DNA of 63,099 bases, the filler included, from Rhabdomonas costata (taxonomy: Eukaryota), in NCBI GenBank assembly GCA_019059605.1. It is 26 parts of 26 records of this genome, joined end to end, with 100 filler letters (N's around TTAATTAATTAA, not from the genome) between each part and the next. Parts side by side here need not be neighbours in the genome. Positions count along the whole stretch, not along the records: positions 7,299 to 9,631 come from JAHMHO010003970.1; 25 more parts are not named here. One strand, 5' to 3'. This document shows positions 6,562 to 28,865 of this stretch, in pieces. The position numbers and the translations under genes were made by a program. Position 1 is the stretch's first letter. Every line of letters starts with the position of its first letter. The notes under the pieces are model-generated. The model did not search any database, was not told the origin of the DNA, and saw only the letters and a program-made list of their open reading frames with translations.

Positions 6562-8491
6562 GTCACACGCGTATCCCTATTCTTTATCCATTGCTCAACG
6601 ATAATCAAAGTCTGCGAACGCACGAGAGAGAGTGTGTGTGTGCGTGTGTGGCACGTGTGTGCTGACCCGCCACTTCCAATCATGACTTGGGACTACGTTC
6701 TCTCTCCCGACAATTAAGGCAGGTGTTGACCCGAGGTTAGGAGGGTGGTCCCCCAGAGCAATACCTCCGACAACGTGCCCCCTGGTTCCCTCAAACTGAT
6801 GCAGGGCAACCGGAAGCTCTCGGTGTCTTCGACAAAGAGTGAACCCAGAATTTGCTCAATCCCCGAGCTCCCAAGGGATACCACCATGGGCTCCAGCCCG
6901 TGCTGTCCACCACAAAGCCTTGATGAGTCGGAAATTGAGGTAATATCGTTCAAGGATCTGGCAGGAGCGGAACTCCCGCGCCTCAGATCTCCTCAGCGTT
7001 TCCGCACCCTCACGGCATGGAAATGGGCGAATGAAGTTAGCGGAGTAAATTTGCTGAACAAGTGGTGTGACCATTCCTCACGAGGCAGAAATGCCGGGGT
7101 GAATTCCCCAGGTCCGGAGTTTAGCGTGAAGTTTCTCGCTCCTAGTCATCTTGAACCATCGCAGCAATGCTGTGGTTTGTGTAGCGGCCCACCAACCCNN
7201 NNNNNNNNNNNNNNNNNNNNNNNNNNNNNNNNNNNNNNNNNNTTAATTAATTAANNNNNNNNNNNNNNNNNNNNNNNNNNNNNNNNNNNNNNNNNNNNGG
7301 TTTTGGTGGTGTGTTTGGGTGGTTTTGTAATTCGGTTTTGCGAGGGCAAAACGGGCGAAATTTGGCTTAAAATGCACTATTTTGTATTTATTTTTTTTTT
7401 CACTCTTTAGCACTTTTTTGCATCGCATTTTTGGTCCCGCCAATTCACATTTTTTCCAGCCCTGGATCTGAGGGTGAGATTTTCCGATTGGATGGAATTA
7501 TGACGTTTGGACGTTTGGATGGATTCAGATGGTTTTCAAAGAGCTCGAAGCTGCCTCCAACCATTTTATCGCAGTGTCTTAAGAGCACAGAAAGTTGGTT
7601 TTGTTATGATCTTTCGCAGAAAAATTCAAGTACTTTCTCTCGAAGGCCTTCACCAAGCGCAACCAGGTCATGGAGGAGTACGACAAAGCAAAAGCTGCTG
7701 CCGCAGCGGCCGAAGAGGAAAGCTAGCAGAATGTTTTGAATGTGCATGTCTTGAACCACTCGTGAATCTGTGAGCAAAATCCGCGAGCAGAATGTGTGTG
7801 TGTGTGTGTTTGTGTGTGCATGTGCTCAACTTGGGACAAGCATGATGCTTTGTACATTCCGCTTTTCCGTTTTGTCGAGTGTAAGCGAAACAATAACAGC
7901 ACCCCTCCAAAACGCACCACAAACATTTCAATTGCTGCTGCCTCCCGAAGAACGAGCGTTTCTTGGTTTAAACATAGCGACTCAACTGAGTTATGGGATC
8001 GTTTGAAAAGAGCGAAATCTAAATTGACGGCACTGCCGCTAGGCAGTTCGTGAAGCGTCCGGGGTGCACCAAAAACAAACAATTTACAAGAAGGATCGCG
8101 AGATCTGAGGGGGAAACAAAAAACAACAAGATGAAACGGGAACCAGAAGGGAAGGGTGACAAACACTGGCAAGATTGGAGAATTTCTCAAATCGCCTGGG
8201 GAAGAAGTGGGAGTGGAAAAACAACTCGGAAGGAGTAATTGTAACGGGGGGAGGCGGTTTTTAAAACTGTTTCGAAGAGATTTGCGAATGTCAGCGGCCA
8301 GGGATTGAGTTGTTGTGGAGACGTTGCTTTGCCCTGTTCGAACGATCCTCTCGTTTCTCAAAGAGGAAATTGGTAAATTCTTTGGTGGGAAGATGGTGGG
8401 ATGGGTGGCTGATTGTTACAAGAGCGGTGAGATCGGGCAAGATCCCCCCCGCCCTTTTTTTAAAAGACTTTTTGTTCTGATTTTCAAGCGC

Positions 8492-9539
8492 ATGGGGAAT
8501 ACAGAAGTGAAGCAATTAGTCCAGCCGAATCCCCTCAGCAAGGACGAGCTGTGCAATTTCCAGAAGATCTACCAAACCTACGGCTCCTCCCTTGTGGTGG
8601 ACGCCCCGCTATTTACCTCTCTGTTTGATACGGGCAGGGTCTCCTTCAGCATCCTTGACCGGCTTTTCACCGCTCTGGACAGGGACATCACGGGCAGCTG
8701 GGGTCAAGTGCATTTTGGGGTGCGGCAGCCGTTATGACACAATGGAACATTATGAGCCTTCCTCTTCTAGGTACCCAGCTCGTCCAAGCCCAAAATGAAA
8801 TATTGTTCCAGTGCTCTGTAGTTTTGGGTTTTGGGGATGGAGCCTTCACTGCCGCCTGCTGCTACAAAAGTAAGGTGGTGGATATTAATCTCCCCACCAC
8901 CCACCACCACCGCCGTCACACGGCTTTCGCCTGGAGGTGCACGGTGGTGCTTCTTATTTAGGGGTTGGGGTTGGGTTGGAAAAGGGAGTTAATGATGATT
9001 CGGATTAATAATGGATCAGTTCCGAACTTCGAGGAGAAAAATGGAAGATTAAGAATTAAAGGAGGGCCACCTCCGGGCCAATATATCTCAACTCTGAGAG
9101 ATGGGAAACCGTGGATCAAATCACGGATCGATCAATTGTGGCGCTGCCTCAATAAAATCGTTGTTCTGATCCATTGCTAATCCTTTGCTCCGATAACGGC
9201 TGCCCCTTCCGTGAACACGAAGAAAGTGCACTTGGCGGGGAAAGTGTTGATCTCGCCGAGCTTGCGGTCGCCCTCGTGGCTGGAGACCGCGCGCCAGTGC
9301 AGGAGAAGCTCCGGTTCCTGTTCTCTGTTCTGGAGCAAAACGGAGAGAGGAAGCTGCTGCGGAAGGAGGTAATGCGGCTTCTGGTGGTGGCGATTCGCCA
9401 GAACATTGCCAGGCTGAGGGGAGGCTCCGGGGGCCTATGGAAGGACCGCGAGTGCGCGGGGTGCAAGAAGGTTCCCAAGGGTGTGGTCTACACCTGTGAG
9501 GACTGCTGCTCAGGGTCCGTGCTTGGGGTGCCGATCACA
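8492..9539 (+). CDS. N-myristoylation-type (MG) EF-hand protein (calcineurin-B/recoverin-like) followed by a ZZ-like zinc finger (5' part; exons 8492-8701, 9240-9539)
   Basis: MGNTE...LDRLFTALDRDITG(SW|E)SVDLAELAVAL...EKLRFLFSVLEQ...CAGCKKVPKGVVYTCEDC. AG acceptor 3 nt upstream of the ATG. Confidence 0.75.
8702..9239 (+). other. Euglenid-type non-conventional (non-GT-AG) intron, 538 nt
   Basis: Ends are GG...GG. CAA at +4..+6 pairs with TTG at -8..-6 within a 12-bp stem (8705-8716/9223-9234). Further stems: 8724-8735/9193-9204 (perfect 12 bp) and 8740-8746/9170-9176. Removal restores the frame. Confidence 0.72.
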
Positions 9540-10590
9540 GTCTGTCTGTGCTCGGGTGTGCCCCCAATTTCTCCTTTACAAAAAGTTGCCAGAATGCACA
9601 GAGAAAAATGCCTCTCGCCCACCCCCACCCCNNNNNNNNNNNNNNNNNNNNNNNNNNNNNNNNNNNNNNNNNNNNTTAATTAATTAANNNNNNNNNNNNN
9701 NNNNNNNNNNNNNNNNNNNNNNNNNNNNNNNGGTTTTGGGGAGCGAAGTAGCCAGCCCTCACAACAGCTGGGGAAGGAAGCAATGAAACATTCAAACAAT
9801 ACCAGCACAGATCACCCCCAACGAAGGCAACGAAGGGGAGAAGGAAGGAGAGGTGGGTGGACCTGACCTTCTCCTATCCGAGACCTGCAGTTTTGGGAGC
9901 CGGTAACCCTAACCCAGCCCGTAGCTTTGAGCACAACATGTGCAACTGATTTGTTCAAATCCCTTCTGAATGGCCGAACGCAGCTGGGAATTGGGGGTCG
10001 GCATAGGTCGACAAATAGGTGTGTCGCACCTATGCCGCATCCCTCAGACATTTTCTTCTCGTTTCTCGTTGCTGGGAGCAAGACCCAAAAAAAAAAGTAG
10101 GAATCCAATCACGGCAATCCTCTCTGGCGAAGAGTGGGATGCCTTTGTCCAACTGGCGTTCAAGGCCACAGGAGGGTGCTGTCGTCCTCTTTAATCTGTT
10201 GTCTTCGTCTGTCCCTTTACCGGAAGAGGAACCGTTTCGAGCTGTCTGGCTGCAACAGCAGGACCCAGTACGGCAAAAGGTAAAACACTAACACTGACTC
10301 TAACCCTCACCCCTACCCCACTCGGAAGTGAGTGAGGATCCGGCTCCCTCCAAAATGTGCTTCGTTAACTTCCTCCACTCCCCACTATTCTCCGAAAAAC
10401 CTTCAGAACCATGCAGTACACGCATGCACAAACCAAGCAAACATGAATCATAACAGTGCAAACACAACAACCTGCTATACAAACGAAGAAAACACTCCCT
10501 GTCCCAGCAGGCTCTCCTTCTCGTCCCCAAGTGCAAGTCCCGGTACCCACTGGAAGAAGAAGCGCCCCAGGACCTACCGAAAACCTGCCC

Positions 10591-11568: not shown

Positions 11569-12163
11569 CTGCGAATTTAGAAGGTACACGAAACCTTGCT
11601 CACGTCTTCGCGCGTGCTTGGGTGCGTGGAAACTCGAAGAAAAAACATATATTTTCACCTCACTTTTCTCTCTCACCCAAAATCCTCCCTTGCTATGTTT
11701 TGCTTGCGAAAATGTCATTGTTCAGCGGTAGAATTAGCTATAAATGCGGAGGGAAGCGGAGGTCACGTGGAGGGTGAATACTGCGTTTGACAGCCAGGGC
11801 TACCATCACCTCAGGTTGGCATCAACATAGCGATTGTTACCAGGCATCTTTTTAGCCCCTCGTGTTTTATTTCGCTTGGGTATTTGGGATTTCTGACCTC
11901 TGTTTTGGTATTTGGTATTTGGGGTTCACAGAACGAGCGCAGCGAGTGGAGTAGCGCATTTTGGTATTTCGGTATGTGGTGGTTCTTTCTTGATATTCTA
12001 TCCTCAGGAGAAACGAGAAACGACAAAAAATCCCCGTGAGGGAACCGCCGGCAAAGCACACCNNNNNNNNNNNNNNNNNNNNNNNNNNNNNNNNNNNNNN
12101 NNNNNNTTAATTAATTAANNNNNNNNNNNNNNNNNNNNNNNNNNNNNNNNNNNNNNNNNNNNG

Positions 12164-13229
<1,066 letters not shown>

Positions 13230-14842
13230 GTGTGGACGTGGCCTCCCCCCCCTCCCCCCTGATGCCTGTCCTTTTTGCATGGCAATTATTGCTGTAAAGT
13301 GTCTCTAACTAAAATCGGTAAGAAGGCCAACCCCTCCTAGAACGCTGTGCGACACCGCTGCAGGATTTGTGTTGAAGGGCTCAGGGGAACTACAGATGCC
13401 TTTGGGGGAGATGCATTGCATTGCATAGCTGATTTATTTCCTTTTGCCTGGATCGGAGTACTCACGTGGCACCACGCCGGCTGGGGGGGGGGTGAGATGC
13501 CATATGGAATTTCCAAGGCCTTAGTGTCATGGGATAAGGGAAGAGAACCTCATCCCGTTTCGGTTCAGCCTGACCGACCGGAACTGTGGGGACCCTGCAT
13601 GATTTAGCGTCACTGCAGTGTTTTTCTTTTTCTTTTTTGCTCTCCGGCGTATCCGGGAATGGTTCCGTCCCCTCCATGGGTCTCTTTCCCTCCTTCACTA
13701 TTTTTCATTTGTTGTGGCCTGACGTCCGTCTTGAGTGAACCACTTTTGGCGGCGGCCATCCGCACTTCAGCATTGACGTCGGAGTGGGACCGGGCGTGGG
13801 GTAAGTGGGGACCTCTGATGGAACCCCTCCGATTGTTTGAATGTGACCTTTTTCTTCATCCCACCCGAAGATGTTTGTTCGATTGTGCAGCCGCTGCTTG
13901 GAATGATTGTGAAGGATCCCGCCTTTGTCTGGCGCAAGTGTGCGAAAAGCTTTGCTGAAGGCTCGAATCTGTTTATGGAAAAGAAGGACGCCCCCTACGC
14001 ACGAAGTCTTTGTAAGTCAAAGGAGCTTGTTGTCAGCATGCAGTATCCACCCCAACTGTGTACAGGTGGATTGGCTCCGGAATTGATGAGATCGGAGTGG
14101 ATGCCAAGGACCCCTCCCGAGTGCTGATCCGAGTTGGTACTAGCGTTTTTGCACTTTTCTTGTGTTTTATTTTCTTTGGCTGCTAGAAATTGTTGCAGGC
14201 AGTCGTCCAAAGTCGTCCAGGGAGGGGGGGAGGGTATGAGAGTTGCTCACGACGAAGGGGTTGTGGCTGCCCCCGCCCCCCTCTCTTCCCTCCGTTTACC
14301 CTTCCTTGACCAAGACCAGGCGTCTCTTTTTGGAGGCAACATTGCGACCACTTTTTGCTTACCCCCGCTGTGTTGGATTCATATCTTTTTAAGCCGACAT
14401 ACTGTTATAAAGCCGTGCTGTTGGGCGATAATGCCAGGCTACTCCCCCCAAATACTCCTGTTTTTGGGGCTGGCTAACGTGCAGACCCACACACNNNNNN
14501 NNNNNNNNNNNNNNNNNNNNNNNNNNNNNNNNNNNNNNTTAATTAATTAANNNNNNNNNNNNNNNNNNNNNNNNNNNNNNNNNNNNNNNNNNNNAAATTT
14601 GTGGTGGTGGTGGTGGTGGTGTGGAGACGACCCCAGGCCCCCTCGCACGAGCTAACCGAGAGTTTACCTGCTTCCCTCCAGATACTTCTGAGCGCCTATG
14701 CAATCCAACAGGGAGGGCAGGGGAGCTGAAGACTTAAAGTTCTGCCCCCTTCGCACATTCCTCGTGTGCGCACTCTGCCTGTGGAAATCTGTGTTTTGGT
14801 GATTTGTTTGAGTGTTTTAGGGGAGGGGGGGCGGTGTCGCAG

Positions 14843-15373: not shown

Positions 15374-15889
15374 GTGTGGTGGGTGATTCTGGAGGATTTT
15401 GAACCTCCTTCTTTGGGCTCCGTCTTTGGTGGCGGGTTTGCGCGTTTATTGGCGGTGAGGCAAGGCATGGCGCGGGGGGGTTTGTCTCCTTGCAGGCTTT
15501 GCTTTGTGCGATGTGTATACATACACGTGTCTCTCTACCACTTTCATGTCAGAGCCATTTCCCTGGCCTTCCGCGTGGTAATGTGCGAGCTTCTGTTTTC
15601 TGACAGTCCCACCCTTCAACGACGCCCCCCCTCCTCTTCCTCTTAGCTACAGTCTGAGGTGCTGCGGCAGCTAAGAGGAAGAGGAGCAGCACACTGAACA
15701 AATGTACAGCGGTGGAGGACCGCGAAGACACGCAAAGAGGAAAAACCCATATTCTATTTGCAATGTTTCCCTTTCCCCCTCTGTTCTGCAAAGTATAAAG
15801 GACTTGGTTGCGCACATCATCGATAAACGTGCGTCTGAATGAAGGTGCGTCCAATTTTTGGAAAAGGCGCGTGAGTGGGGTTCCCCAAC

Positions 15890-16725
15890 CTGGTCGACCA
15901 CATAGACTTTCATGCCGGCCTTCAGCAGGGCCAGGGAGTACTTCTCCATCTGAGTGGCCGGGAACCCAGACATCCGCACCCGCCCCGACTTCAGCTTCTT
16001 GCTCGTCAGCACAATTCCGGCCACCGTGGACAGCGCAATCGCGTCGTCGAAGTACGCCTAACAACAGAGAGAAAATCCACAGATCCAGTTGCTTGGCGTC
16101 CCATCGCGGTCAGAACAAAACACCATCCTCAAATATTGAGGTCTTTTGCCCCACATAAATGTCACCATCCGCAAGGAAACAGGAAAAGTTTTGTTTGGTC
16201 AGAGTGGTCAGAGTGGTCGACCAGAAGGACGAATGAAAATTCAGTAGCGTAGTAGCGTGAAGTTGCAGCGCTTGTAAACTGGCCACCCGTCGTGATACTA
16301 TTCTAAGTTTGCGAGAGTTCACGTTTGGTTGAGTTTCACGCAGAGCAGGCATCCTCGTTTACCGCGCAGCACAAGGCCACACAAAACGCCACATGGCATA
16401 GCAACAGTAACAGGGTACGATGATTCTGCATCCAACAAGCAGTTTCGTTTTTCTCGGCTTGCACGCCGAAAAACGCCATCCTTTTCTGACCTGCGGTGCA
16501 AGAGGTGTCCAGGGAAGCCCATCCATACCCACCCCACACCTCGAAAAAATCTCCAACGCGGAAAAGCAGTAGCCCTTCCGGCTGCTTCTTCTTGTGGTCC
16601 ACGTACTGCTGCACCAAAGGTGGCAGGGACGGCGAGTCCATCGTCAGGAACTCCGACTCAGTGGGGTTCGCCGTGCCAGCCGCAGCGTCCGAGAAGTCTC
16701 CACTGGTACCCATCGCGAAGGACGA
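15890..16725 (-). CDS. MutS-family mismatch-binding domain I (MutS1/MSH1-like; exons 16725-16540, 16057-15890)
   Basis: PPLVQQYVDHKKKQPEGLLLFRVGDFFE|AYFDDAIALSTVAGIVLTSK...MSGFP...YSLALLKAGMKVYVVDQ carries the GDFxE mismatch-recognition motif. Confidence 0.9.
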
Positions 16726-18224
16726 CTGTGAACAGTGCCCCGCATGGCGACAGTAGAAGGAGGGTACTCTATCACAAGTTGACCTCACACCTTCATCAGG
16801 GTTGTGAGGCGATACCACCTCGGAGCCCTTTCGCAGCTTAAGAAAGGCGCCCATAGAACTACCATTGAGTATAGCCCGTCAGCTGTCCACAACCTTGGGC
16901 CTTCATTCATATGCAAACCCCACAAANNNNNNNNNNNNNNNNNNNNNNNNNNNNNNNNNNNNNNNNNNNNTTAATTAATTAANNNNNNNNNNNNNNNNNN
17001 NNNNNNNNNNNNNNNNNNNNNNNNNNTCAGATGTGGGATGCATAGGCAATGTCTTGTGTCAGCAGTGTGCCTCTATGTGTGTATTGACTGAGTTTATCTC
17101 TGGTCGGATTTAATGGTGGGTTGCGCACGCTCACGCTTACCCCCACTGAAAGGGTAACGGGAACGCGGGTCTAGGAATTGTTTGGGGATGTGAAGAGTTC
17201 TGAGGGATTTTTCGGATTTGCTGAAACATTTACTGATTCCGGCACAAAGTCACTCTTCACACTTTACCCTCTCCATGTATCGGCGGGTTAAATACGGGCT
17301 GGGGCTGACTGGTTTTGAGATGGGGGGTGTGTGATGTACAGACAGAGTTACCATTTCTTATGCCCCTTTTACTTCCCTGGTTTTCCTCGAGTGCAGCACA
17401 TTATCTGGAGGGTCCAGCTAAGATGATATGCACTTCCATCCCAGTGGATTGCGGGTTGTCCCTCTTCACTATGGCCCCTTTCGCCGAGACCCCTCACTTC
17501 ATGACGACTGACTTGTCTTTGCAGGGCGGATGCTTGTCCCTCTAAGGACAGCCAGATTTCCCAAGAGGTGTTTGCCATCTTTTTGAGGAAAACGTTCCTT
17601 CCCTTCGGATCCTGGCTAGTTCTCTCTGTGTTTTTTCCTTTTTGCTTGGGTTAATTATTTTGATACGTGCATCTGCTCTCTTTGGAAGGATACATTATGA
17701 CGTGACTTAATATACAACACTTCGTGTCTCAGGAACCAAAAATGCCATTTCCTTCGAACGCACTATCGTGCATGCTTCTCACAGTTTCACTTTTTGTCAC
17801 GCTTTTCGATAATTGAGGGGTTTTCGACTTCGTCTGAAACCCCGCTGCCGTCCTGTAATGTCGTTTCTTTCTTATAAGACAGACCACTTGGTTTCTGAAA
17901 GTTGAATACATACCGAATAATCTGGATGAGTTGTTCATTGTTCGATTTGATAATGCAACAATTGAAAAGGATTAGATGAGTCGCCAAACAAACGGTGCGT
18001 GCATTCTGATTCAAGGCAAAAGGTCCGACTCGGCACCTTTTCACACACAACCCCCTGTTTACCACCTCTTAGCCCTATGCTGCTGTTTTAATGTTCGGAT
18101 GCGCATAACCCCACCAAAATACAGCGTAGAATTTCAGAAACAATCACGTCTTCCCCAACAAACAACGCAGCCATAGGGTCAACTTTAAGAGAGGGTAATT
18201 GATGAGACCTTTCAAATTGTACAG

Positions 18225-26749: not shown

Positions 26750-28865
26750 TTTGTTTGGTGGAACCACCGGGGGCCCTTTTGGCCCTGAGAAGAGCCGGAG
26801 GAGCGGTGGAGTCGTCAGAGAGAAGCACATTCCTGACATCGAGATAATGATAATGATAACCAATGCTCATCCGCAGACAACCAATCGAAGAAAGCCCAGA
26901 ATCCGGCTCGCCATGGTCGATAGCGGAAGCAAAACCTTGGGCAATCGACCCAGGATCCGCAAGACCACCGTCGCGCAAGTCCTCACTTCCGTATTTCAGG
27001 TTCCACACCTTAATGGTGTTGTCCAAACTGCCGCTGACAACACGTGTCCCGTCCGAAGTAATAAACAAGGACGTGATGCGATCAGTGTGTCCCTCAAGGA
27101 CGCGCTCCACTTTCCTGGAATGTAGGTCCCACACCTTAATGGTGGTTTCCTTACCGGCACTGACAAGGTATTTCCCGTCTGAAGTTATCGCGACAGCATG
27201 AGCCGCACTGCTATGTTCTTCAAGGGTGAGAACGGCCTTCTTGGTATGCAAGGTCCACAGCTTGACGGTGCCGTCTTCACTGACGCTGGCAATGAACTTT
27301 CCATCCGAGGTGGCGGTCAAAGCTTCGACGGATGAACCATGTCCCTCAAAGATGTGCTCATCCTTTCCAGTATCTAGGTCACACACCTTAACAGTACCAT
27401 CTTCGAAGCCTGAAGTAATGCGCTTTCCGTCCTGCGTCGCGGTAACGGCAGTTAACTTAGCAGGAAATCCGCCAAGCCCAAAGGTGCTTTCCTCCCCGCC
27501 CGTATCAATCTTATAACCCCTGATGCCACCGAGGAAATTTTCCCACACAATCCATTTCCCACCCGACGTCCTAGCCGTGGCAACAACGCGACCACTCTTT
27601 CCCTTGAAGCTGTGCTCCTCCTTCCCTGTAGCCACGTTCCACACCTTGATAGTACTGTCCTCATCACCACTGATAATGTGCTTTCCGTCGGGGCTCACCA
27701 CCAACGCACGGAGGGCACTGGTGTGTCCTTTGAGGGTGCGCTCCTCCTTCCCCGTAGCAAGGTTCCACATCTTGATGGTCTTGTCCTGACTGCCGCTGAC
27801 AATGTGCTTCATGTCCGTGGTCACGGCCAAGCCAACGACGGATTTAGAGTGTCCTTCGAGGCTGCGCTGCCCGGTATCCAGGTTCCATACTTTTATGGTG
27901 TCCTGACTGCCGCTGACGATGTACTTTCCGTCTGAAGTCACAGCCAGGGCCATAACGCAATCGTTGTGTCCCTCAAGGGTCCGCTCCTCCTTCCCAGTAA
28001 CCAGGTTCCATACTTTGATCGTCTTATCTTCACTGCCACTGACGATATGCTTGCCGTCCGAAGTGACCGTCAGCGCTGCGATACCATCACCATGTCCCTC
28101 AAGAGAGCGCATCATATCCCCTGTACGCAGGTTCCACACCTTTACGGTCCCATCTGCACTGCCGCTGACGATGCACTTTACGTCCGAAGTAACACACAGG
28201 GAGGTGACAGATTTCGTGTGCTGTGAAAGAGTGCGCTCCATCTTTCCGGTTTCTCGGTTCCAAACTTTGATGGTCGAGTCCCTACTGCCGCTGACAATGT
28301 GCTTCCCATCCGAGGTAAAGACCACCGAGGTGACATCTCCACTGTGTCCAGAGAAAGACTGCATTTCCCCGGCAACCAATTCATGCAACTGGATAATTTC
28401 GTTAAGGGCATGGGCAATGTAGTTTCCGTCCGAGGAGACAGCAACAGCGCCCGAGCCAAGGTTTGAGAAGACGGGCACCCTGCAGCAAATCGTGCGCTCC
28501 TCCTTCCCTGTTCTCAAGCTCCACACCTTGACGGTTTTGTCGTTACTGAAGCTGACTATGCGTTTTCCGTCGGAAGTCACCGCGACGGACCAAATTAAAT
28601 CAACGTGGCCCTCAAGGGTACGCACCTCTATCCCAGATTCCAAGTTCCACACCTTGATAGTCTTGTCTTCACCGCCACTGACAATGTGCCTGCAGTCCGG
28701 TGTCACGGCAATTGCCCTGACCGAACCAATGTGTCCGATAAGCTGTGCCTTTTCGCCGCAGAGGAGGTGGGCCAGGGAGGCATCTCTGAGGTCGAGGCCG
28801 CACAGCCGCAGCCGAGTGAGAACGGCGTACCGAAGATCAGCCCCACGAAAGCTGCTGCACAGCAC
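26750..28865 (-). CDS. Pentapeptide-repeat + about 14 WD40-repeat protein (C-terminal part of a NACHT/STAND-WD40-like architecture); single exon of about 2.1 kb
   Basis: FRGADLRYAVLTRLRLCGLDLRDASL followed by repeated GHxxxVxALAVTSDGKHIVSGSxDKTIKVWNL. AG acceptor at 28867-28866. Confidence 0.92.

Follow-up and report, generated by a model that had tools for sequence, protein, structure and literature searches.

The window analyzed here, a stretch of 63,099 bases from the Rhabdomonas costata draft assembly GCA_019059605.1, comprises 26 contigs (2321-2338 bp each, in roughly descending order) separated by spacers of 44 N, TTAATTAATTAA and 44 N. Because the contigs were artificially chained, genes on either side of a linker are not genomic neighbours. 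We focused on a predicted N-myristoylated EF-hand/ZZ-finger gene that lies on one of these contigs and is interrupted between positions 7 and 8 of its first EF-hand loop. The unspliced frame that opens with the ATG at 8492 continues past ALDRDITGS into WGQVHFGVRQPL and then meets a stop; a second open frame, shifted by one base, begins at 9246 and reads VDLAELAVALVAGDRAPVQEKLRFLFSVLEQNGERKLL...ECAGCKKVPKGVVYTCEDC...GVPITVCLCSG. The 3' edge of the first frame (exon 1) is ambiguous, from 8695 to 8698, and the second frame (exon 2) supplies loop positions 8-12, another EF-hand, which is degenerate, and the beginning of the first ZZ finger. Homology to the proteins P0001 and P0008-P0015, described below, ends after ...VCLCSG, and the next intron probably starts at 9556, at a donor matching the GTGTG consensus given for E. 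gracilis; the C-terminal part of the gene lies beyond the contig end. Pfam searches with each exon half separately returned nothing significant, and Rfam gave 0 matches at E ≤ 1 on this contig. All statements on splicing made here are drawn from the DNA and its homologues.

We searched exon 2 with phmmer against 1.84 billion representative proteins and obtained six matches at E ≤ 0.001, the best at 58% identity, and a profile search with an alignment of homologues (A1) returned 10 proteins. These proteins, of 345-397 residues, begin with MGN and combine EF-hand domains with ZZ fingers (PF00569). P0002, P0004 and P0008-P0015 share the MGN N-terminus, the EF-hand pair and the ZZ finger (PF00569) with the window protein in co-linear order, and the joined products of the window gene score 153-167 bits against the homologue profile. 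The closest named homologue comes from a euglenid: P0004, a 155-residue transcript-derived open reading frame (ORF) of Entosiphon sulcatum in EukProt, has its first 11 residues identical to those of the window protein. A PDB search gave weak matches (E = 0.05-0.2, best 0.052), nine of the 11 best being chains of the neuronal-calcium-sensor family. These alignments pair VDLAEL with IDFREF, starting at residue 80 of hippocalcin-family chains, which we take to be positions 8-13 of the EF-hand 2 loop.

No identical or near-identical protein was found among longer proteins containing exon 1 or exon 2, by phmmer with exon 2 or with profile A1, a weak negative because the profile search missed P0001 and P0005, both of which are rows of its own query alignment. 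Exon 2 matched 594 pattern stretches in metagenome contigs, none of which was confirmed. P0001 is the closest relative of exon 2 (58% identity) and lies on a 214-kb contig; its N-terminal 90 residues are of low complexity, are non-homologous and end in ...GVSSVDVG, as if the gene call had run through an intron just upstream of that loop position. The four metagenome loci recovered with P0001 (L001-L004) matched this low-complexity part only and were set aside as irrelevant.

To compare loop lengths we used 11 loop-spanning homologues (alignment A2), leaving out P0001, whose N-terminal part is not alignable. The loop has 12 residues with G at position 6 in nine of the 11 (P0004 and P0008-P0015), as in DKDPNGCLDLSE of the Entosiphon ORF P0004 and DIDQSGSIDFTE of P0009. 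In the columns of A2, the end of exon 1 (...DRDITGS) meets the start of exon 2 (VDLAE...) with zero gap and zero overlap. P0002 and P0005 have about 20 extra, non-EF residues inside the loop; in both, the D-x-D-x-[ST]-G signature retained by the window protein has been lost. The homologues thus bear out the initial sequence-only reading of this locus in one respect, namely that an EF-hand gene is broken within its loop.

Five ways of joining the two frames keep the reading frame without stops: a GT-AG intron, the register preferred in the sequence-only reading, a 547-nucleotide (nt) excision, and two GC...GG variants that yield other products. The three named joins had all been described as frame-keeping, and they are. 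Removal of 547 nt gives ...TGSVDLAE with a 12-residue loop and a predicted junction ...ACGGGCAG|TGTTGATC... (...GGCAG|TGTTGAT...). The registers 8696-9242, 8697-9243 and 8698-9244 are equivalent over an AG repeat, and 8699-9245 differs from them by a synonymous codon and yields an identical protein. Removal of 8702-9239 (538 nt) gives ...TGSWESVDLAE, in which WES is added between loop positions 7 and 8, with the junction ...GCTGG|GAAAGTG.... The GT-AG intron 8703-9222 (520 nt) would give ...TGSWESALGGESVDLAE, adding WESALGGES, with the junction ...GCTGGG|AAAGTGCAC....

Against a profile of the 11 homologues, the scores were 166.9 bits (547-nt product), 161.6 (8702-9239 product) and 158.6 (GT-AG product); with P0002 and P0005 removed from the profile they were, in the same order, 166.6, 159.0 and 152.5. 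We found no GT-AG or GC-AG pair that restores the 12-residue loop in 8650-8800 × 9120-9300. The 547-nt registers instead have the ends AG..AA, GC..AA, CT..AG or TG..GT. The 547-nt excision between AG repeats, put forward earlier as an alternative, is the best supported of the joins, because no other rejoins DRDITGS to VDLAE as in nine of the 11 homologues.

The ends of the intervening segment are complementary. An inverted-repeat search (seed 6) of a 751-nt region placed three nested end-to-end stems exactly where they had been noted from the sequence: an outer stem of 11/12 complementary positions (8705-8716/9223-9234, 92%), a middle stem of 12/12 (8724-8735/9193-9204, 100%) and an inner stem of 9/10 (8740-8749/9167-9176, 90%) that encloses a perfect 7-mer (8740-8746/9170-9176). 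Because the search returned 40 inverted pairs in all, a lone pair could be due to chance; a nested, co-linear trio at both ends could not. The outer arms are built on a palindrome, AAGTGCACTT, which has a near copy (9/10) at 8706-8715, and so the arms are direct repeats of each other (12/15) besides being inverted repeats.

The strength of this pairing was then compared with controls. RNAduplex gave -51.1 kcal/mol for the segment's first 55 nt paired with its last 80, a value reached by none of 400 shuffles and none of 400 genomic controls, which were pairs of the same geometry drawn from the window (mean -26.2, sd 8.2, minimum -49.6). The cofolding free-energy difference (ddG), -27.3, was matched by two of 400 genomic controls and one of 400 shuffles. 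The ends of two conventional control introns from the same window gave -22.6 and -22.1, which is background; they were taken one base off the borders as read, an offset immaterial for arms of 55 to 80 nt. The whole fold of 561 nt, proposed as a check along with the sequence-only reading, was more stable than all of 100 shuffles (z = -3.55), and the outer stem was present in the minimum free-energy structure. The segment thus has the paired ends of euglenid nonconventional introns, at a strength beyond chance. Within it, G-rich, telomere-like runs lie in the region 8818-8979 (TTTGGGTTTTGGGG at 8823-8836 and GGGGTTGGGGTTGGGTTGG at 8961-8979), and a C-rich run, CCCCACCACCCACCACCACCGCC (8892-8914), pairs with them in the predicted fold and in the inverted-repeat list. 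The coordinates of all features are given in Table 1.

Table 1 Features of the interrupted EF-hand/ZZ-finger gene and of other genes, in window coordinates.
Feature	Position	Strand	Description
Host contig of the EF-hand gene	7299..9631	.	2333 bp, single contig; from N-run coordinates and sequence
Exon 1, coding part	8492..8698	+	ATG at 8492; MGNTEVKQLVQ ... ALDRDITGS; loop positions 1-7 of first EF-hand
Putative nonconventional intron, 547 nt	8698..9244	+	From homologue loop length, profile score and border scan
Exon 2	9245..9555	+	(S)VDLAELAVALVAGDRAPVQEKLRFLFSVLEQNGERKLL ... CAGCKKVPKGVVYTCEDC ... GVPITVCLCSG; from open frame and homologues
Probable start of next intron	9556..9631	+	Putative conventional donor G|GTGTGC; runs off contig end
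Outer stem, 5' arm	8703..8716	+	Core 8705-8716, extendable by G8703-C9236 and U8704-G9235; contains AAGTGCATTT
Outer stem, 3' arm	9223..9236	+	Contains perfect 10-nt palindrome AAGTGCACTT (9224-9233)
Middle stem, 5' arm	8724..8735	+	GGCAGCCGTTAT; contains CAG 8726-8728
Middle stem, 3' arm	9193..9204	+	ATAACGGCTGCC; contains CTG 9200-9202
Inner stem, 5' arm	8740..8749	+	Inverted pair, 9/10
Inner stem, 3' arm	9167..9176	+	Inverted pair, 9/10
GDP-mannose 4,6-dehydratase gene, intron 1	12725-13110	+	GAG|GTGAAG...TTCAG|G; homology-delimited
GDP-mannose 4,6-dehydratase gene, intron 2	13230-14065	+	AA|GTGTGG...TACAG|G; homology-delimited
MutS gene, intron	16539 down to 16058	-	GAG|GTGTGG...GTTAG|G; homology-delimited

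Euglenid nonconventional introns have variable borders, paired ends with CAG/CTG at +4..+6/-8..-6, repeats resembling target-site duplications, late removal and circular products; an origin from MITE-like elements (MITE, miniature inverted-repeat transposable element) has been proposed in print, and the excision machinery is unidentified (PMC3935182, PMC4770533, PMC11282704). The background given in the sequence-only reading (the motif and its positions, the unidentified machinery and the circular products) agrees with these papers. The Euglena code, 5'-N3CDG-/-CH'GN5-6|R, was defined by knock-ins (Nomura et al. 2025, PMC12501133), in which the 5' spacer tolerated no change of length and single changes of CAG or CTG abolished splicing. 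In E. agilis, 61.2% of nonconventional introns obey the code, and hence 38.8% do not (PMC12501133). A compensatory CAA/TTG double change is not among the tests reported in the abstract and Results of that paper (PMC12501133). For the heterotrophic euglenid R. costata, only seven putative nonconventional introns have been curated (Soukal et al. 2021, PMC8219788). In its Table S6 every one of the seven opens with GC, closes with pyrimidines (CC, CT or TT) and is followed by an exon whose first base is G; for four of them we followed the helix by hand on the printed ends and found it at 0-13 nt from the intron termini (PMC8219788). A search of the window for one of the curated sequences in this table gave 0 matches at up to 3 mismatches.

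On this evidence, the interruption is probably a 547-nt intron of the euglenid nonconventional type, non-GT-AG and end-paired, a reading to which we assign a probability of about one half (0.52). The two intron ends would be brought together in the pre-mRNA by the long, three-part terminal helix. Excision would remove 547 nt, with the first base at 8696-8699 and the last at 9242-9245, slidable over the AG repeat, and would rejoin ...DRDITGS to VDLAE..., recreating a canonical 12-residue EF-hand loop. The cuts would fall 6-9 nt outside the helix base on both sides, not at the 3-nt and 5-6-nt spacing of the Euglena code. The class is the best reading of the segment, and both the class itself and the ideas of a MITE-like origin and of circular products are already published. 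Thus, of the earlier proposal of a non-GT-AG, euglenid-type intron, the class is upheld by the strong end pairing, the loop-restoring borders that are neither GT-AG nor GC-AG, and the euglenid homologue; its preferred cut sites are not.

Several observations weigh against the 547-nt excision. The gaps between profile scores are only 5-14 bits, and the family evidently tolerates extra loop residues, since two of the 11 homologues (P0002 and P0005) carry insertions of about 20 residues there. The 547-nt registers have TGG or GGG at +4..+6; lacking C at +4 and CHG at -8/-9, they fail the Euglena code, and the base of the helix fits the register 8702-9239 rather than theirs. The 3' end is purine-rich (GGGGAAAG), in contrast to the pyrimidine ends of all seven R. 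costata examples. An in-frame GT...AG pair exists, with a C-rich tract upstream of the AG, and a nonconventional intron has a low prior in this genome, because all three complete homology-delimited introns in the window are GT-AG.

An exhaustive scan for CDG/CH'G motifs found no pair that combines a paired helix with an in-frame, loop-restoring join. The CAG/CTG pair inside the middle stem (8726-8728/9200-9202) was considered as a splice site and rejected: N5 or N6 spacing breaks the frame and puts a pyrimidine at the exon start, and N4 spacing, though in frame, adds 18 residues and gives the poorest profile score, 153.5 bits.

The register that the sequence-only reading had preferred would also make the segment a nonconventional intron, here of 538 nt (8702-9239), whose cuts 3 nt ahead of CAA and 5 nt past TTG would give ...DITGSW|ESVDLAE.... 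Its GG...GG ends, G flanks and in-frame join without a stop are as had been described, and its geometry obeys the Euglena rule, with a 3-nt 5' spacer, a 5-nt 3' spacer and a purine at the exon start. It has the CA/TG core at +4,+5/-7,-6, called the most conserved part in PMC3935182, and the terminal 10 nt of its two ends can make seven pairs. The product, however, carries WES where nine of the 11 homologues have no extra residue, and it scores 5.3-7.6 bits below the 547-nt product. The proposal that CAA/TTG is a variant of the pairing motif also conflicts with the Euglena code, in which G at +6 and C at -8 are required: A at +6 and T at -8 violate CDG/CH'G, and single changes of CAG or CTG abolished splicing in the knock-ins (PMC12501133). 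Moreover, the segment would start with GG, as opposed to GC in all seven R. costata examples. We therefore regard these cut sites as unlikely.

A conventional spliceosomal intron at 8703-9222 that happens to harbour an inverted-repeat element, leaving the nine residues WESALGGES in a degenerate loop, strikes us as similarly doubtful. It would suit the genome: the three complete homology-delimited introns in the window are GT-AG, the donor that follows in this gene (GTGTGC, 9556) looks conventional, and 29 of 29 complete introns in six R. costata genes are GT/AG (PMC8219788). The join is in frame without a stop, and 11 nt upstream of the acceptor AG stands CTGCCCCTTCC (9200-9210), a C-rich tract of the kind described as typical of conventional introns of E. 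gracilis. Long loop insertions occur in P0002 and P0005, and some conventional euglenid introns form stable structures (PMC4770533). The donor, in contrast, is poor. GTCAA shares just GT with GTGTG (2/5 positions), a consensus that is that of E. gracilis (PMC11170887), and the four donors read in the window (GTGAAG, GTGTGG, GTGTGG and GTACTA) all have a purine at +3, unlike GTCAA. Of the three named joins, this one scores worst against the profile (158.6 or 152.5 bits), and its added residues would part D1/D3/T5/G6 from V8/D9/E12 even though each of these ligand positions is intact. None of the 400 genomic controls and neither conventional control intron had ends that pair as strongly as those of the segment. 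Overall, the prior in this genome is high for the GT-AG reading and its acceptor is fair; its donor is of low quality and its product is the worst.

The weakest alternative, and one we consider improbable, is that the segment stays in the RNA, as an inverted-repeat insertion that made a dead allele or pseudogene or as an assembly or amplification artefact of an extremely fragmented, low-coverage draft; the arms do look like terminal inverted repeats, and the searched collections hold no identical or near-identical protein (a weak point, as the searches missed known members), but both flanking frames are intact, every conserved residue is kept up to the junction, and we detected neither a target-site duplication nor a second copy in the window. 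The remaining probability belongs to readings other than the four considered here.

We next asked how far the segment resembles a transposable element. Its arms are terminal inverted repeats as in MITEs and introners, though interrupted (42 nt vs 65 nt). No target-site duplication was found at the junctions beyond the 2-nt AG repeat: the alignment score of 11 was reached in 1025 of 2000 shuffles and 762 of 2000 genomic controls, and extended direct repeats at the junctions were accordingly rejected as being at chance level. A blastn search (word size 7) of the 63-kb window found no further copies of the arms, the best other match being 22 nt long (E = 0.008). Membership of a transposon family is thus not shown, because the junctions share no more than AG, the 63 kb hold no second copy and Rfam returned nothing. 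The description 'MITE-like' given to the segment at the outset draws on the arms only: the inverted arms hold up, whereas the target-site duplication is at chance level and a second copy is absent from the 63 kb.

Conventional introns were read in two other genes of the window. A partial GDP-mannose 4,6-dehydratase gene (12163-14494, plus strand) has, besides its two complete introns, an acceptor ...CCACAG|A near 12536 and a donor TTG|GTACTA near 14139, and a GT-AG intron splits the N-terminal portion of a MutS homologue (MutS_I domain; 15674-16878, minus strand). The conventional donors in the window fit GTGTG, the U1-pairing consensus given for GT-AG introns of E. gracilis (PMC11170887). In addition, an uninterrupted frame of 705 codons on the minus strand (26751-28865) fills nearly a whole contig and encodes 11 WD40 repeats (Pfam E = 3.5e-115); either a gene without introns or DNA of bacterial type in the draft could account for it.

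Which enzyme excises the nonconventional introns of euglenids is not yet known, and the sole genetic rule comes from two Euglena species. A clean example, with a product fixed by a 12-residue calcium loop, a helix without CAG/CTG and cuts outside the Euglena spacing, would help to define what the machinery reads and would also serve as a compact test substrate. At present, the segment is a single unverified candidate of a well-described class, and its value is a testable junction prediction, ...GGCAG|TGTTGAT..., against two named alternatives.

Compared with known systems, the candidate resembles the euglenid nonconventional introns (Milanowski et al. 2014, 2016) in its inverted-repeat-paired ends, its non-canonical, loop-restoring borders, which can slide over a short AG direct repeat, and its size, which lies within the reported range. 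It differs from them in that CAG/CTG does not stand at +4..+6/-8..-6 in the loop-restoring registers (solely CAA/TTG does so, in 8702-9239), in an unusually long, three-part helix (31 paired nt over 42 and 65 nt), and in a purine-rich 3' end with a C-rich tract nearby. Set beside the seven R. costata introns (PMC8219788), the register 8697-9243 has the same GC intron start and G exon start, and the helix begins several nucleotides inside the ends, as in three of the four introns traced by hand from Table S6; the candidate ends in AAA or AAG, however, not in pyrimidines. Like introner or MITE-derived introns of Micromonas, dinoflagellates and others (reviewed in PMC11282704), it would be a short, non-coding segment with inverted-repeat ends, lying in a coding exon, whose removal restores the frame exactly. 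Introners as described there occur in many copies, show clear target-site duplications and bring with them or generate GT-AG sites, whereas the candidate has no duplication above chance and no GT-AG for the restoring excision.

What sets the candidate apart is its mismatch with the Euglena code. It shares with Euglena-code introns the paired ends and, in the registers 8696-9242, 8697-9243 and 8699-9245 as well as in 8702-9239, a purine at the start of the downstream exon. The 547-nt registers, unlike them, lack the motif as well as the spacing, and 8702-9239 has the right spacing with the motif CAA/TTG. We tentatively suggest, as a possibility with rather low odds, that the excision machinery of deeper-branching euglenids may measure from the helix by a different ruler (perhaps |GC...|G), and that the three-part arms (40-65 nt) may be still recognizable transposon ends in early conversion to an intron.

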